Shown: one piece after another, positions 58,621 to 64,000 of the stretch
How the letters are laid out: the number at the start of each line of letters is the position of its first letter
Position numbering within the stretch: position 1 is the stretch's first letter
Assembly (NCBI GenBank): GCA_963841435.1
Contig: CAWJCS010000005.1
Span: 192,001-256,000, forward strand
Direction: 5' to 3'
DNA from: an uncultured delta proteobacterium
Lineage (GTDB): Bacteria > Myxococcota_A > Polyangia > Polyangiales > Polyangiaceae
DNA length: 64,000 nt
Notes under the pieces: generated by a model
Database searches by the model: none
What the model was told of the DNA's origin: nothing
The model's input: the letters and a program-made list of their open reading frames with translations, nothing else
Program-made: the position numbers and the translations under genes

Positions 58621-59040
58621 TTACCAGGGCTGTCCGGTCCCTGTCTCGACGTACGACTTCAAGCTCGCGACGAAGTGATTCCAACCCTGAGCGACGGGCT
58701 CGGGTGCCGCTTCCTTCCAGCCATCGTGCTCGAAGAGCACTTGCGTCGAGCCGCCAGTCTGCTTGAGACGCCACGTGAGGGTCGTGCCGACCCAGGAAGA
58801 CATGTCGTGCGCGACGCACTGCCAGCGCACGAGCTCGTTCGGCTCGAGCTTTTCGATGCGGTAGCGCATGTTGATGGGGTTGCCGTCCTTGACGAATCGC
58901 AGCGTGGCCTCTCCGCCGACGGCGTCCGGCACCTCGGCGACGGCATTCCACCACCCGCGGTAGCCGGCCTGCGTGCTGAGCGCCGCGTACACCTTGCTCA
59001 CCGCCGCGTGGATCGTGACTTCGTTCTTGATCGAGCTCAT
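58621..59040 (-). CDS. SRPBCC/AHSA1-domain protein
   Basis: VYAALST..GYRGWW, WVGTTLTW, FEHDGW, SLKSYVETGTGQP. Confidence 0.85.
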   Translation of the reverse strand: MSSIKNEVTIHAAVSKVYAALSTQAGYRGWWNAVAEVPDAVGGEATLRFVKDGNPINMRYRIEKLEPNELVRWQCVAHDMSSWVGTTLTWRLKQTGGSTQVLFEHDGWKEAAPEPVAQGWNHFVASLKSYVETGTGQPW

Positions 59041-59492
59041 GGGATGCCTCCTTGTGCGTTGCTTGCCAGAAAACCTTCGAGCTGCCCGAGGCAACCCTGC
59101 CAGCCGCCCTCGTGCTCGCGCCGCAGGGTCTCGTCGGGCGGCAGATCGTGAGTCAAAACGAGCTCCGTCTGCTTGCCGTGGTCCGAAAGCTCCAACGTGA
59201 CGACGCTGTCCTCGACACAGAGATCGGGGCAGCTCCACGTGAAAACGAGCCGCGAAGCGGGGACGACCTCCCGGTATTCGCCGAACTGAAGGTGCGTCTT
59301 GCCCTCGGTGTCGATCATCCGAAGCTCGTAGCGGCCGCCCACACGAACGTCGGCCGTGACACGCGCGGACCAGCCGGCCATCGGATAAAACCAGCGCGCC
59401 ATCAGGTCCGGCCGCGTCCACGCTTCGAAGACGAGCGAGCGCGGTGCATCGAGCACTCGGCGCACGACGACGCCCGGCGCGACGCTCGTCAC
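59037..59492 (-). CDS. SRPBCC/AHSA1-domain protein
   Basis: APRSLVFEAWTRP, DVRVGGRY, RLVFTW, HEGGW. Confidence 0.88.
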   Translation of the reverse strand: MTSVAPGVVVRRVLDAPRSLVFEAWTRPDLMARWFYPMAGWSARVTADVRVGGRYELRMIDTEGKTHLQFGEYREVVPASRLVFTWSCPDLCVEDSVVTLELSDHGKQTELVLTHDLPPDETLRREHEGGWQGCLGQLEGFLASNAQGGIP

Positions 59493-59833
59493 GACGCCCC
59501 CTTGCCCTGCAGCTCGGCCAGCAGGCGCTCGAGCGAATCGAGCTCACGATTCCAGAGGCCCGTGAGCTCCGCGAGCACCTTCGCCGCGTCACGCGGGGGG
59601 GCCGCACCGAGCCGGCAGCGGTACTCGCGGCCCGAGCGCGCCCGCCGGAGCAGCCTCGCCCGCTCGAGCACCTGCACGTGCTTCGAAACGGCCTCGAGCG
59701 ACATGTCGAAGGGGGCCGCAAGCTCCGTCATCGTCCGCTCGCCGCGCGCGACGCGGCGCAGGATGCTGCGCCGCACGGGGTGTGCGAGAGCGCGAAACAC
59801 GCGATCGAGCTCGGCGGGATGATGCTCAACCAT
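59489..59833 (-). CDS. ArsR/SmtB-family transcriptional regulator
   Basis: FRALAHPVRRSIL, ELAAPFDMSLEAVSKHVQVLERARL. Confidence 0.88.
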   Translation of the reverse strand: MVEHHPAELDRVFRALAHPVRRSILRRVARGERTMTELAAPFDMSLEAVSKHVQVLERARLLRRARSGREYRCRLGAAPPRDAAKVLAELTGLWNRELDSLERLLAELQGKGAS

Positions 59834-59884
59834 TCGGTTGAACCTTCTAGCGGCACCGCGGACGACTGTCAACCATTTGGTTGA
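59826..59884. promoter_or_regulatory. Two palindromic ArsR operators
   Basis: TCAACCATTCGGTTGA (59826-59841, over the start codon) and TCAACCATTTGGTTGA (59869-59884). Confidence 0.75.
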
Positions 59885-59929
59885 ACGTTTTTGGTGGGGG
59901 TCGGCGACCGCCGTGCGGCGGCGCGACGA

Positions 59930-60740
59930 CACGGTGCCGCCCCGTTCCACCGCCCGTGCTCGTCGAAGGTCCCGTCGACGCCGACTTAGACGCTGTGTTC
60001 CAGCTCACGCTGCGAGACACCGTGGTCGAGGTGACGCCGCGGCTCGAAGCCCTCGTCGACGAGCGCTTTCCGGACCCTCGCGTGGCCGCCGAAACACTGC
60101 GTTCCACGCGCGACTCGGAAGCCGAGAGCGACGGGCTGCGCCTGCGCCGCGCGTCGCTCGGCGTCGACCTGGCGAGTGGGCAACGCGTCACCGCGCGCCT
60201 CGAGCTCGATGCCGCGAGGCTCCTGTACGAGGAGGAGCTTTACGAGACCGTGCGCGAAGCGTACGCGGAGCTCGCGCTCGGTGCGGCGGCGGCGCTGCGT
60301 GTCGGGGCTTTCGACGTGCCCTTCTCGCTGCTCGATCGGGCAAACAATCCGAGCTTTGAGTTTGCCGATTCGCCGCGCGTGCACGGTCTCGTCGATCACT
60401 TGCGCTTCGCCGGGCGTCAGGTCGGGGCGGGTGCGGTTATCGCGCCCCTCGAGGAGCGGGACCGATTCGAGCTGCAAGTCGGCTTTCGAGGAGCTCCGCT
60501 TCCGCTACCGCGAGCACGAGCGTGGCGTTGCCTACTCCCTCGCGAGCGAGGTCGAGCTGACGCAGCTGGTCACCCGGGTCGAATGGCTCTCGGGTGATCG
60601 CACCGACAACGACGTTGCCGCTCCGGCCCTCCTGCGACGCGGCGACGCTCGGAGCTTTCGCGGGCTGTGGGGCATACGTCATCCGCCGCTACGCAGCCGA
60701 CTCGACGAGCGGCCTCGTCAACCTGCAGATCGAGCTCTGA
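59930..60740 (+). pseudogene. Degenerate porin-like (OprO/OprP-style) gene remnant
   Basis: GLRLRRASLGV…VREAYAEL…LRVGAFDVPFS.LD resemble porin strands; no clear start and the frame is broken near 60490. Confidence 0.4.
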
Positions 60741-60805
60741 CGAACGCCATGAGCGTCCGAGGGTCCCCCTCCGCCTCTCTTCGGGCTTGCCGACTCGCTC
60801 GCGCC

Positions 60806-61246
60806 ATGTTTGGCTCGTGTCGCTTGCGGATTCGAGCGAATCGAGCACCGATTGGCGCGGCTGGCTTCGCCGCAAGGGTGGCGAGCGCCCTGTTTTCGTG
60901 GCTGATCACGACGGCGCACGTCGCGGCCGTGCTGCATTTCGCGCTGGTCGCTCACCACGTTTGCCCGGAGCACGGTGAGCTCGTTCACGACGACGCGATC
61001 CACAGCGCTCCCTCTGCGCGCCACTCGAGCAAGCCGACGGCTACGTCCGGCGCTCCCGAGCCGGGGCACGAGCATTGCTCTCTCGTAGCGCGGCCGCGCG
61101 AGCAGGCGGCGCCCGCCGGGGCCGCGCGCGTCGAGCTCGCTGCCAATCCCCCTGCGATCACTCTCGCCGTCGCTTTTCGCGCCCCCGGGCGGACCGGGCC
61201 TGATCTGCTCTTGATCGCGCCGAAGTGCTCGCCCCCCGTCGCGTGA
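60806..61246 (+). CDS. His/Cys-rich small protein upstream of the TonB receptor (DUF2946-like leader)
   Basis: Hydrophobic segment, HHVCPEHGELVH, HEHC, C-terminal LLLIAPKCSPP; start uncertain (60749, 60806 or 60878). Confidence 0.65.
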   Translation: MFGSCRLRIRANRAPIGAAGFAARVASALFSWLITTAHVAAVLHFALVAHHVCPEHGELVHDDAIHSAPSARHSSKPTATSGAPEPGHEHCSLVARPREQAAPAGAARVELAANPPAITLAVAFRAPGRTGPDLLLIAPKCSPPVA

Positions 61247-61459
61247 CGCTCTGCTCGTTGCCCGTCGTCTGACGCTCGGCAACGTCGACCATCACCTGCT
61301 CGCTCCTCCGATCCGCGCTTAGCGCGCGCCTCAGCTCGAGAGCGACGCCATTTCCTTGCCCCCACCGCGCCAGCGGCCGCGCCCGACCGGCGCACCGTGA
61401 AGGCGCCCTGCCCCCGTCGCCGCGTCGGCGTCTGCGCCGCCGCGCTCGACCGCCGTCCC

Positions 61460-64000
61460 ATGCGTGCATCCATGCGTCGTCCCTTTCACGCAACGTTCGT
61501 TCTCGCTGCGCTCGCGCTGAGCGCAACCATGCTCTTCGATCCGCGGCCCGTCTTCGCGCAGGGCGTCAGACCTCCGACTCTCGTCGAGGAAGTGGACGCC
61601 ACGTGGCCCGGAGAGGCTCGTCCGGACGACCTCACCGTCCCGGTCATTGTGACCATCACGAAGGAGGGCAGCGTGTCGGCGGTGGAGGTCACCGCGAGCG
61701 CCGGGGCGGACCTCGACCAGGCCGTCGTCGCAGCGGCGCGGCGCTGGCGCTTCGAGCCGGCGCGGCGCGGCGACGAACCGGTCGCCGCTCGCGTGCGCGC
61801 CCTCGTGCGCTTTCCGGGCAAACCTCCCGCTCCGCCGCCGGCAGCGCCGACCCATTGGCCTGCTCGCGCACCGGGTACGGGGGTGTCGCCGGCTGCGCCG
61901 TCGACAACAGCACCTCGGGAAGCGACGGTGCCCGACTCGGCGACGCCCGTCGGGGCAGCGACGTCGACCCCCGCAGCGGAAGCTGCCGCGTCCACCACCC
62001 CCACGGCGCCACCCGAGGCCGAGGCCAGCCCCGAGGAGGTCGTCGTGACGGGCCGCGCGCACGCGCCGCTGCGTGGCGCATCCGACTACGTCCTGCCGAT
62101 CCGCGAGCTGTCGCGCGTGCCACGCAAGAACGCGTCCGAGCTGCTCGAGCTCGCGCCGGGCATTTTCTTGACGAACGAAGGCGGCGAGGGCCACGCCGAG
62201 CGCGTCTACTTGCGGGGCTTCGACGCTCGCGAGGGCCAGGACGTCGAGCTGTCGCTCGACGGCGTGCCAGTCAACGAGAGCGGCAACCTGCACGGCAACG
62301 GTTTCGCGGACCTGCACTTCATCATCCCCGAGCTCGTGCACACGCTCCGGGTGCTCGAGGGTCCGTTCGATCCACACCAGGGTAACTACGCGGTCGCTGG
62401 TAGCGCCGACTACCAGCTCGGGCTCGAGCAGCGCGGCCTTACCCTGAAGTACGGGCGCGGATCGTTCGGTGCGGAACGCCTGCTCGTCACGTTCGGCCCG
62501 CCCGGCGCGAGTGTCCACACGCTGGCGGGCGCCGAACTCTACCGCACCGGCGGCTTCGGCCAGAACCGCAGCGCGCGGCGCGCGAGCAGCATGGCAGAGT
62601 ACGAGGGCACGCTCGGGCGCTCGACGAGCTTCCGGCTCGCAGGCACTGGCTACGCGACCAGCTACCACGAGGCGGGCCTGCTGCGCGCCGACGATGTCGC
62701 GAGCGGCCGCGAGGGTTTCTTCGATACCTACGACCCGCACCAGGGCGGCAACGCCACGCGCTTTCAAGCAATGGCGGACCTCGAGAGCCGCGCCGGAAAC
62801 TTCGTGCTCTACCAGCAGCTCTTCGCGATCCGGCGCACGATGCGCCTGCGCGAGAACTTCACGGGCTTCTTGCTCGACACACAGGAGGCGATCCAGGAGC
62901 CACACGGCCAACGTGGCGACCTGTTCGATCTTGCCGTCGGCGAAACGACGTACGGCCTGCGCGGTCACGCGCGCAGCCAGATCGACGCTTTTGGCCGCCC
63001 CCAGGAGCTCGAGCTCGGCTACTTCGCCCGCGGCGACCACGTGGACGGGACGCGCCAGCGCATCGACGCGGCGAGCAACCACCCATACGAGACCGACACC
63101 GATCTCCACTCTGAGCTAGCGGACATCGGCCTTTACGCCGACGTCGCGCTCCGCCCGTTCGAGAAGGTGACATTGCGCGGCGGTGCCCGCTCAGACCTCT
63201 TTTCCTACGACGTGCTCGACGCCTGCGCCGTCCAGGGCGTGTCGCTCCCCGACCCCGATCACCCGCCGGGCGACGCGAGCTGCCTCGACCAGGAGCGCGG
63301 CGGCGAGCACCGCGAGCCGACCCAGCGCTCGTCGACCGCGGCGACCAAGCTGATGCCGCGCGCGGCGGCCCAGATCGGCCCTTTCAGTCACTTCACGCTC
63401 TCGCTCGCCTGGGGCCAGGGCGTGCGCTCGATCGATCCTAGCTACGTGACGGACGACGTCCAAACGCCGTTCGCGAGCATCGAAGCGGAAGAAGGCGGCG
63501 TCAGCTTCGCAAAGAGCTTCGAAACGCTCGCCATGACGGCGCGCTCCGTGTTCTTCCGCACGCACGTCGACCGCGATCTGATTTTCAGCGAAACGGAAGG
63601 TCGCACGATTCTCGGCGGTGGCACCACGCGCCTCGGCTGGACGGGAGCGCTGCGCCTCACGGCACCCTTCATCGACGAGAACGCCAACGTCACGCTGGTG
63701 CGCTCGGCTTTCGACGACAACGGGTTGCTCGTTCCGTACGTTCCCGACGCCGTGGTTCGCTCCGACACGGCGCTCACGGCCGATCTGCCGGTTTCAGTGG
63801 ACGGCACACCGCCGCGCGGCTCGCTGGCCGCGGGCGTGAGCTACATCGGTCGCCGCGCGCTGCCGTACGGGCAGCGCAGCCAGACCATCTTCACGGTAGA
63901 CGGCTCCGCTGCGGTTCGTTTCCGGGCCTTCGAGCTCACGCTCGAAATCACGAACGTCTTCGACACGCGCTACCGCCTCGCCGAATACGACTACGTCTCG
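61460..64000 (+). CDS. TonB-dependent receptor with fused N-terminal TonB_C domain; partial
   Basis: Hand translation: signal peptide, …AAARRWRFEPARRGDEPV (TonB_C), Pro linker, EEVVVTG, plug GGEGHAERVYLRGFDAREGQD…NLHGNGFADLHFIIPE, then beta-barrel; runs off the window. Confidence 0.9.
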   Translation, partial: MRASMRRPFHATFVLAALALSATMLFDPRPVFAQGVRPPTLVEEVDATWPGEARPDDLTVPVIVTITKEGSVSAVEVTASAGADLDQAVVAAARRWRFEPARRGDEPVAARVRALVRFPGKPPAPPPAAPTHWPARAPGTGVSPAAPSTTAPREATVPDSATPVGAATSTPAAEAAASTTPTAPPEAEASPEEVVVTGRAHAPLRGASDYVLPIRELSRVPRKNASELLELAPGIFLTNEGGEGHAERVYLRGFDAREGQDVELSLDGVPVNESGNLHGNGFADLHFIIPELVHTLRVLEGPFDPHQGNYAVAGSADYQLGLEQRGLTLKYGRGSFGAERLLVTFGPPGASVHTLAGAELYRTGGFGQNRSARRASSMAEYEGTLGRSTSFRLAGTGYATSYHEAGLLRADDVASGREGFFDTYDPHQGGNATRFQAMADLESRAGNFVLYQQLFAIRRTMRLRENFTGFLLDTQEAIQEPHGQRGDLFDLAVGETTYGLRGHARSQIDAFGRPQELELGYFARGDHVDGTRQRIDAASNHPYETDTDLHSELADIGLYADVALRPFEKVTLRGGARSDLFSYDVLDACAVQGVSLPDPDHPPGDASCLDQERGGEHREPTQRSSTAATKLMPRAAAQIGPFSHFTLSLAWGQGVRSIDPSYVTDDVQTPFASIEAEEGGVSFAKSFETLAMTARSVFFRTHVDRDLIFSETEGRTILGGGTTRLGWTGALRLTAPFIDENANVTLVRSAFDDNGLLVPYVPDAVVRSDTALTADLPVSVDGTPPRGSLAAGVSYIGRRALPYGQRSQTIFTVDGSAAVRFRAFELTLEITNVFDTRYRLAEYDYVS

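Follow-up and report, generated by a model that had tools for sequence, protein, structure and literature searches.

The DNA analyzed here, called the window in what follows, is a stretch of 64,000 nt from an uncultured delta proteobacterium of the Polyangiaceae. Near its right end, on the forward strand, lie a small gene of 146 codons plus a TGA stop (60806–61246), a spacer of 213 nt (61247–61459), and a gene for a TonB-dependent receptor that starts at 61460 and extends beyond the window edge at 64000. The small open reading frame (ORF) is kept across the genus and in the protein database. We suggest that it may encode a cis-acting, metal-sensing arrest leader resembling CruR of Bordetella pertussis and CutF of Rhodobacter capsulatus, that its arrest motif would be free of arginine, and that it would control the TonB receptor operon; we put the probability of this reading at about 0.5. 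The gene family is well supported, and by analogy with those two systems a role as an arrest leader is plausible.

The start at ATG 60806 yields a protein of the length typical of the family. An alternative ATG at 60750 would add 19 residues, and the frame is open in the 5′ direction as far as 60035. From the N terminus, the protein consists of an arginine-rich start (R6, R8, R10, and R13), a single hydrophobic helix or signal anchor (residues 18–47; 60857–60946), the segment HHVCPEHGELVH (residues 50–61), the tetrapeptide HEHC, and the end ...LLLIAPKCSPPVA-stop. Two clusters of potential metal ligands can be delimited. Cluster 1 covers residues 44–61 (LHFALVAHHVCPEHGELVH; 60935–60988), as defined by alignment conservation and a predicted hairpin; cluster 2 is HEHC itself (residues 88–91; 61067–61078), in which C91 is invariant. 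A Ser/Pro/Ala-rich stretch separates the clusters, and an unremarkable stretch follows HEHC. The linker (residues 92–133; 61079–61204), the length of which is conserved while its sequence is not, leads to the C-terminal block LLLIAPKCSPP (residues 134–144; 61205–61237), the putative arrest motif. The initial annotation of this DNA had picked out the same ORF, and the strings it quoted are all present where it had placed them. In one detail it was wrong: the ORF does not end at Pro-Pro, as Val and Ala lie between the proline pair and the TGA (61244–61246). The C terminus thus reads DLLLIAPKCSPPVA-stop.

An AlphaFold2 model built with the family alignment gives a confident helix over residues 18–47, followed by a hairpin (residues 50–52/59–61), coil from residue 62 to residue 130, and a short helix (131–136). 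Ten-residue blocks over residues 21–50 have a mean pLDDT of 91–98, and the mean of the whole model is 75. Since the model offers only a helix, a small hairpin, and coil, a globular domain is predicted to be absent. The helix is predicted to lie in the membrane with the N terminus inside and the C terminus outside, because four Arg precede it in residues 6–13 and acidic residues come after it. One trait of CruR-type leaders, an N-terminal signal peptide or an N-in/C-out segment, is therefore found in the helix and its four preceding arginines.

The spacer is C-rich, as claimed by the initial annotation, the count of which (27 C against 13 G in 61261–61320) is exact; over its full length, it has 100 C and 60 G. 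The length of 213 nt applies if the receptor starts at ATG 61460; with a start at GTG 61397 it would be 150 nt. Only 1.7% of the 213-nt segments across the 64-kb window are as C-skewed as the spacer. The excess of C over G extends from about 60946 to 61543, where the skew falls to −0.33 at its lowest. The RNA of 61200–61500 folds no better than its shuffles (z +0.35), i.e., it has no special structure. No intrinsic terminator is found within the spacer. Two terminator-like matches, at 60336 and 60875, are no more than is expected from shuffles. A position ahead of a metal-transport gene, at the distance of a long spacer, is a further CruR-type trait, and it is seen here in the 213 nt that precede the receptor.

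The predicted receptor was confirmed by its domains. From ATG 61460, the protein has a signal-peptide-like start, MRASMRRPFHATFVLAALALSATMLFDPRPVFA-QG, an N-terminal TonB_C domain (residues 59–118, E 5.3e-10), a Pro/Ala-rich linker, a Plug domain (residues 211–314, E 1.3e-11), and a barrel. Its gene ends at window-equivalent position 64111 (L043:3461–6112, where L numbers designate loci). TonB_C fused to Plug and barrel is an architecture like that of the myxochelin receptor; the match to the myxochelin receptor model is weak and confined to the N-terminal part. Comparison with solved structures returned only plug matches to BtuB and CirA and was uninformative about specificity. The next gene (L043:6109–6885) overlaps the receptor gene by 4 nt and encodes a 258-aa lipoprotein that matches no Pfam family. 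Counterparts of this lipoprotein, at 46–55% identity, are encoded behind the receptor in L014, L017, L019, and L023.

Long spurious ORFs are common in high-GC DNA, and antisense to this region lie two ORFs, one of 197 aa and one of 162 aa. Could the small ORF be a chance ORF, or could the real gene lie on the opposite strand? The family makes this next to impossible, as its motifs are kept across the genus and the phylum at 22–45% identity despite varying codons, and as the family is large. In a word-indexed protein database, the single window protein matched one relative. By six-frame search, relatives were found in more than half of the related genomes (24 of 41); 20 of the 24 other genomes of the genus are among them, with relatives that share 22–45% identity and retain the same motifs. 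Among 1.84 billion representative proteins searched with a 21-sequence profile (A1), 3963 matched at E ≤ 0.001, and 2328 still did so at E ≤ 1e-10. The phylum was sampled evenly with 201 genomes, representing 143 genera; the family is present in 64 of these genomes (42 genera) at E ≤ 1e-5, mostly in single copy.

The host range was also probed at the DNA level, with a degenerate pattern of the three motifs run on a collection of species-representative genomes. The pattern, for which 0.00 matches are expected per shuffled window, matches more than 121 contigs, nearly all labelled Myxococcota. Carriers belong to the Polyangiales, Myxococcaceae, Haliangium, Kofleriaceae, and Sandaracinaceae, and the cultured ones include Corallococcus coralloides, Myxococcus eversor, Archangium gephyra, Vitiosangium, and Pyxidicoccus. 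Outside the Myxococcota, matches are found in one Planctomycetota metagenome-assembled genome (MAG) and in a few MAGs labelled Proteobacteria. Because the pattern favors high-GC codons, as well as E-H-G and A-P-K, this host range is a lower bound. Eight of 82 pattern instances were removed before the counts of spacers, folds and skews, consensus, 8-mers, upstream neighbors, and Pro codons that are given below, among them six with out-of-frame tails (L071, L084, L087, L088, L091, and L121). L098 and L099 overlap and hence are double-counted in pattern-based counts. Among Pfam and NCBIfam models, no named family was found for the window protein; its nearest ESM Atlas clusters are Myxococcota "hypothetical proteins" with no common Pfam family.

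Conservation is concentrated in three blocks. In an alignment of 150 members (A2), the mean column identity is 12%, and the invariant columns are H50, C53, H56, and G57 in cluster 1, C91 in cluster 2, and A138, P139, K140, P143, and P144 in the C-terminal block. H44 and H88 are conserved in at least 90% of members, and the remaining columns are not conserved; neither A1 nor A2 has an unbroken run of 7–10 conserved columns. A pooled set of 234 non-redundant sequences, which is partly pattern-selected and anchored on the motifs, gives the consensus Q-x5-H-[F/L]-x-L-V-x-H-x-x-C-[A/P]-E-H-G-E-L-x-H for cluster 1, with His at the position of H61 in 175 of the 234. The corresponding C-terminal consensus is [L/V/I]-[L/Y/F]-x-[L/Y/F]-A-P-K-x-[S/A]-P-P-[A/V], usually followed by the stop. 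Cluster 2 takes the form H-[D/E]-H-C in 122 of 135 proteins.

Positions were counted in 151 proteins not selected by motif, comprising the top A1-profile matches and the query, 135 of which could be scored for spacing. APKxxPP is present in 151/151, and so is the narrower APKx(S/A)PP. The number of residues following Pro-Pro is one in 87 of the 151, two to six in 57, and eight to 11 in seven. Between the Cys of cluster 2 and the Ala of APK lie 45 residues in 23 proteins, 46 in 59, and 47 in 46, which accounts for 128 of the 135; in the window protein, C91 to A138 is 46 residues. A spacing between metal motif and arrest motif that is fixed to within 1–2 residues, again a CruR-type trait, is thus found in the window protein and in the family. 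The distance between the Cys of cluster 1 and that of cluster 2 is 37–51 residues in all but two of the 135 (56 and 68). A linker that is free in sequence and fixed in length suggests a molecular ruler.

The codons of the proline pair vary between loci (15 codon pairs), which indicates that selection acts on the peptide. Among 94 family loci, CCT is enriched at the Pro-Pro codons, at 42/188 vs. 62/691 for the other Pro codons of the same ORFs, a statistic that is overstated because the loci are related. CCTCC occurs in 25 of the 94 loci; elsewhere in these ORFs, CCT is the less used Pro codon. The enrichment could reflect slow decoding or an anti-Shine-Dalgarno element. The window has CCC CCC at this site (61232–61237).

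The genes downstream of the family members are varied. Among the 82 pattern instances, the gene within 1.5 kb downstream is a window-type receptor in 32, a barrel in 13, and another gene in 32, and five could not be assessed. In loci of the genus and order, a window-type receptor is found downstream in eight, seven of which were scanned for domains, with TonB_C in five and Plug only in two. A conserved barrel-like protein of about 430 aa is downstream in nine loci; it has no Pfam family, one weak BBP2 match, and, in L016, a C-terminal Phe. Domain scans covered 19 of the 32 other genes. CarboxypepD_reg-Plug receptors were found in 4/4 long ORFs scanned. L082 has ZnuA, an ABC ATPase, and an ABC-3 permease downstream, i.e., a complete ZnuABC operon, and L089 has an unnamed protein and then ZnuA. 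In L094, L103, and L106, ABC ATPases are found with the barrel beyond. L079 has ExbB and then a receptor, L116 an unnamed protein followed by ExbB-ExbD, and L083 an unnamed protein followed by a TonB_C-Plug receptor. L119 has an outer-membrane efflux protein (OEP) and L074 a WD40 protein. In the Myxococcaceae, a protein of about 220 aa and of no named family is downstream in 5/5 scanned.

To judge by these gene contexts, the common denominator points to envelope metal traffic with a zinc flavor. Zinc is favored because ZnuABC, ExbB, receptors, and porin-like barrels are found downstream and because a ligand set of His, Cys, and Glu fits this metal. In addition, the same tail precedes unrelated downstream proteins, so that a dedicated protein partner for the tail is unlikely and the ribosome would be the common factor. 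The initial annotation had proposed a metal other than copper, and ZnuA, ZnuB, ZnuC, ExbB, and receptors downstream in relatives support it on this point. It had also proposed three comparative checks, namely conservation of APKxSPP, of HxxCPEHG, and of the linkage to a TonB receptor. The C-terminal motif is conserved as described, with A-P-K and P-P invariant in 150 members, and HxxCxEHG is invariant at H, C, H, and G. The linkage holds in a broader sense: outer-membrane uptake genes are conserved downstream, but they are not specifically TonB receptors, as the counts above show. With all three checks positive, both a C-terminal motif and synteny, the lack of which the annotation had named as grounds against its own proposal, are present.

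Outside the window, its genome carries the small gene once more (G000:C5:1105407–1105817; L013:4086–4415), in a version that is 42% identical and ends in ...FAPKQSPPA. It stands before the barrel-like protein of about 430 aa, an arrangement shared with eight other loci. On one contig, tandem small genes (L098/L099) with the tails RHRLAPKHGPPV and RYRLAPKTSPPA precede one receptor, the match to which begins 259 and 1477 nt after their ends. L115 and L116 are two copies on one contig, about 4 kb apart.

Starting from the gene, its conservation, its geometry, and its contexts as described above, we propose the following scheme, in which the stalling, the polarity of the switch, the part played by Rho, and the identity of the metal are carried over by analogy. 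The nascent chain would be held in the membrane by its N-terminal helix. The ribosome would pause at ...APKxSPP, where S-P-P sits in the context of the invariant A-P-K and of hydrophobic residues, two codons before the stop. With the pause at P143/P144, H-x-H-C would have just emerged from the exit tunnel, 52–56 residues from the peptidyl-transferase center, and the HxxCxxHG cluster would adjoin the anchor. For a chain that is exported like CutF, cluster 2 would instead have reached the far side of the translocon. At low metal, the stalled ribosome would cover the end of the ORF and keep Rho off the unstructured, C-rich spacer, and the receptor operon would be transcribed. When metal, most likely zinc, is ample, both His/Cys clusters would bind it; a metal bridge between clusters 1 and 2 would shorten the tether, the chain would compact, and the pull would free the arrest. 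The ribosome would then terminate, and Rho would end transcription within the 213-nt spacer. The net effect would be that uptake genes are off when metal is plentiful. A more specific proposal, which we hold tentatively and at less than even odds, is that APKx(S/A)PP acts as an arginine-free arrest motif and that zinc, by bridging both clusters, frees the arrest and so shuts outer-membrane zinc import, beside or instead of Zur. Some family members may use a translational read-out like that of CutF.

Besides the ruler-like linker, the predicted coil, the unrelated downstream proteins, the precedents of stalling at Pro-Pro and at RAPP, and the kinship with DUF2946 taken up below, the following features argue for the arrest reading. 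Only three blocks are conserved, and the last of them is 1–11 residues from the stop in 151/151 proteins. The spacers are long, in contrast to the 4-nt overlap of the receptor with the next gene: taking the distance from the stop to the first possible start codon as a lower bound, in 67 loci (16 further loci had no ORF call), the median is 103 nt, and the distance is at least 50 nt in 56 of the 67. Finally, the window spacer is C-rich and unstructured, as at the cruR rut site, described in PMC9426467.

The following points weigh against it. The lower bound of the spacer is less than 30 nt in eight of the 67 loci. The C-richness of the spacer, noted by the initial annotation, holds for the window but not for the family as a whole: the first 120 nt after the stop have a negative (C) skew in only 59 of 91 family loci, below −0.15 in 20, and the skew is positive in five of 17 loci of another set. 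The family spacers also fold better than expected, with a mean z of −1.09 and 24/91 below −2, i.e., significantly structured. By crude ORF calling in 85 loci, the upstream neighbor of the small gene is divergent in 27, on the same strand in 36, and not called in 22; in 13 of the 85, no more than 80 nt separate the estimated start from the end of a same-strand ORF, so that the small gene is not always clearly the first of its operon. PF11162, the Pfam model of the DUF2946 family to which CruR belongs, has no match to the window protein at E ≤ 1 and, in a run on the whole genome, none at this locus at E ≤ 10. Alignments by hhalign with six or 37 classic DUF2946 proteins span 13–21 columns, with probabilities of 1.7% and 6.3%; at this low probability the Cys of cluster 2 is placed on the first Cys of CxxC, and only the HEHC/CxxC neighborhood is aligned. 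The motif itself lacks the Arg of RAPP, the motif at which arrest of CruR has been demonstrated in vitro and which loses its activity with R139A (PMC12992588), so that arrest in the present family would need a new mechanism or would be weak. Finally, no block is better conserved than cluster 1, and the four potential ligands that it offers by itself (H50, C53, H56, and H61) would also suit a stable zinc-binding membrane protein.

The last two points lead to an explanation in which the small protein acts in trans as a stable, membrane-anchored, periplasmic metal-binding protein, e.g., a zinc chaperone or accessory protein, with APKxSPP as a docking or turnover signal. Cluster 1 alone could then provide a four-ligand zinc site, as H-x2-C-x2-H-x4-H on the predicted hairpin beside the anchor, the missing Arg would be of no consequence, and spacers that vary across the family in composition and structure would fit. 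Co-location with ZnuABC, receptors, and ExbB is likewise as seen for accessory proteins. What makes this explanation rather unlikely is the geometry and the context of the tail. Residues 62–130 are predicted to be coil and the linker sequence is unconserved, yet its length is constant within three residues; the motif is never more than 11 residues from the stop in the 151 proteins; the same tail stands before unrelated proteins, which leaves no common partner; and long spacers contrast with tight junctions elsewhere in the operons. Moreover, action in cis is documented for the nearest known relatives, the mature forms of which went undetected in cells, as described in PMC9426467 and PMC9973294.

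The structured spacers of some relatives would fit an arrest leader of the opposite polarity. CutF provides the precedent: metal prolongs the stall, and the stalled ribosome opens an RNA structure that hides the downstream start (bioRxiv 2025.02.05.636593; PMC9973294). The 24 of 91 family spacers that fold significantly better than shuffles, the mean z of −1.09, and the enrichment of CCT, hence of CCUCC, at the proline pair (overstated as noted) would agree with such a translational switch. The window itself speaks against it, as the spacer is unstructured and the Pro codons are CCC CCC. Pairing of the stall codons with the receptor start, tried as a candidate, was no better than in controls, at −28.7 kcal/mol vs. 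averages of −27.4 in shuffles and −30.8 in other ORF pieces. Induction of uptake genes by metal would also be odd logic, and we consider this polarity improbable. The reading in which metal frees the arrest and Rho ends transcription is the one carried forward here, at the odds given at the outset.

A search for a Zur box or another shared upstream operator by 8-mer enrichment gave nothing beyond blocks specific to subgroups, and one of these blocks belongs to the coding region of a divergent gene. In L020, the divergent gene encodes an FHA-histidine kinase and not a metal regulator. Members of the subgroup with the tail RF(R)[V/I]APKNSPPA have in common the non-coding block TCCTAGC-N(about 17)-GGTGTAGCCC-N(about 6)-GGGTGA, located about 206 nt 5′ of the HxxC codons in L020, L044, L053, L057, L077, L085, L093, L100, L102, L114, and L120. 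The block may be a promoter or operator; it is not present in the window. Two neighbors in the window complete the picture. A 238-aa ORF on the forward strand (59881–60597) matches only positions 20–130 of the 370-position Porin_O_P model (E 9.5e-8) and, on this sequence match, looks like a truncated or decayed porin gene; no counterpart was found in related loci. On the reverse strand, and divergent from the leader region, 59037–59950 encodes an ArsR-type HTH regulator (HTH_20, E 1.3e-12) in 4-nt overlap with an AHSA1/SRPBCC protein (E 2.4e-26).

To our knowledge, metal-sensing arrest leaders have been shown experimentally for copper only, in CruR and CutF. If the proposal is true, the principle extends to a second metal, probably zinc, and to a phylum for which the accessible text of the CruR/CutF literature has no such description. 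A new arrest motif, without the Arg held essential for RAPP-type arrest, would then be at hand for ribosome biochemists to dissect. Thousands of small "hypothetical" proteins, from a family present in about a third of the sampled genomes of the phylum, would acquire a function, and the long untranslated spacers before myxobacterial receptor, porin, and znuABC operons would be explained. The zinc switch would be translational and would operate beside Zur or instead of it. The idea is directly testable because cultured species, namely Corallococcus coralloides, Myxococcus eversor, and Archangium gephyra, carry members of the family.

How do these proteins compare with known arrest peptides? Stalling at diprolyl motifs is context-dependent, as described in PMC4176338. 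RAPP-like ("RQH") arrest peptides, such as ApdA, ApdP, and SecM, have a C-terminal x-[A/G/S]-P-P and an N-terminal localization signal and are reported to stall when the third residue occupies the P site; the variants listed in PMC10987492 include QAPP and RSPP. The present family likewise combines a C-terminal motif with an N-terminal localization signal, and Q precedes S-P-P in 41 of the 234 pooled sequences. The residue before [S/A]PP is otherwise T in 73, L in 36, N in 36, and S in 29, and the second position is S in 201 and A in 30. In the window protein, the first residue is Cys rather than R, Q, or H, which places it outside the RQH pattern (R/Q/H)-(A/G/D)-(P/G/S)-(P/G). Two further differences are the invariant A-P-K, located three to five positions further upstream, and the downstream genes, which are not sec or yidC.

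CutF was described together with 29 clusters of "CutF-like" proteins that combine a motif of Cys, of His, or of both with a Pro-Pro at the C-terminal end; some of the clusters probably sense metals other than copper, and nickel or cobalt has been suggested for those with His only (PMC9973294). The window protein resembles this group, as far as it is described there, in being small and exported, with a Cys/His metal motif, a Pro-Pro in the last 15 residues, and a same-strand metal-homeostasis gene downstream. CutF differs from it in having CxxxC, a PPP stretch, and a cleavable Sec signal, as well as a short spacer in which a stem-loop covers the Shine-Dalgarno site, and in inducing a detoxifying oxidase. 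The terms Myxococc-, zinc, and ZnuA do not occur in the main text of PMC9973294. By this comparison, which covers the main text, the window family may still be one of the 29 clusters. In the text available to full-text searches around DUF2946, CruR, CutF, and zinc arrest peptides, neither the motif set nor carriers among the Myxococcota nor a zinc-uptake context is mentioned. The principle of the arrest leader is already in print with CruR and CutF, while the motif set, the phylum, and the zinc context, as judged from the text covered, are apparently new.

The closest parallel is CruR (Bp2923), a member of DUF2946 (PF11162) and the leader of cruR-bfrG-bp2921 (PMC9426467). According to the same source, CruR is an exported protein of 145 residues with a semi-conserved Cys51, CXXC at 90–93, and RAPP at 139–142, three residues from the end. 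A 162-bp spacer with a C>G bubble follows, and copper relieves the arrest, leading to Rho-dependent termination. The spacing between the motifs is 45, and the addition of five residues strongly cuts the copper response, whereas regulation is preserved in C51S (PMC9426467). RAPP/RGPP leaders located before TonB receptors have also been surveyed (PMC12992588). The likeness to the window protein extends to most of the layout: a length of 145 vs. 146 aa, a segment for export or anchoring at the N terminus, an upstream semi-conserved Cys (C51 vs. C53), a metal motif at 90–93 vs. 88–91, a fixed spacing of about 45–50 residues, a prediction of poor structure, Pro-Pro three vs. two residues from the C terminus, and a spacer of 162 vs. 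213 nt with C in excess of G, followed by a TonB-dependent receptor.

The differences lie in the motifs and the metal. The window protein has H-x-H-C, with one Cys, where CruR has CxxC, and A-P-K-x-S-P-P, with neither Arg nor Ala before Pro-Pro, where CruR has R-A-P-P. Cluster 1 (HxxCxxHG) is the best conserved block of the window family, whereas C51 of CruR is dispensable. The gene contexts of the window family suggest zinc, as opposed to copper, and the family is centered on the Myxococcota, which the available text of PMC9426467 does not list among DUF2946 hosts. Nevertheless, the two families approach each other at the margin. Two proteins of the window motif type, L034 and L035, pass the PF11162 gathering score of 23.7 bits, with 28.5 and 27.8 bits over model positions 9–111 and 6–113, and L040 is just below. 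In the 201 phylum genomes, the same model also finds classic CxxC...RAPP proteins (L036, L037, L039, and L042). Of the 150 family members, 35 match PF11162 at E ≤ 1 (best 4e-4), while every other family is matched by at most two members, and in an ESM Atlas cluster at a score of 0.93, DUF2946 is assigned to 15% of members. The spacing agrees as well: the first Cys of CxxC is 46–50 residues from the Arg of RAPP in 37/37 classic DUF2946 proteins, and the Cys of cluster 2 is 48–50 residues from the residue before [S/A]PP in the window family. The initial annotation spoke of a myxobacterial analogue of the DUF2946 leaders; the CruR-like layout bears this out, but "analogue" probably understates the connection. 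Although it does not belong to the Pfam family as defined, the window family, to judge from the sequences, is probably a remote sister clade of DUF2946; at the least, it reproduces the DUF2946 geometry by convergence.

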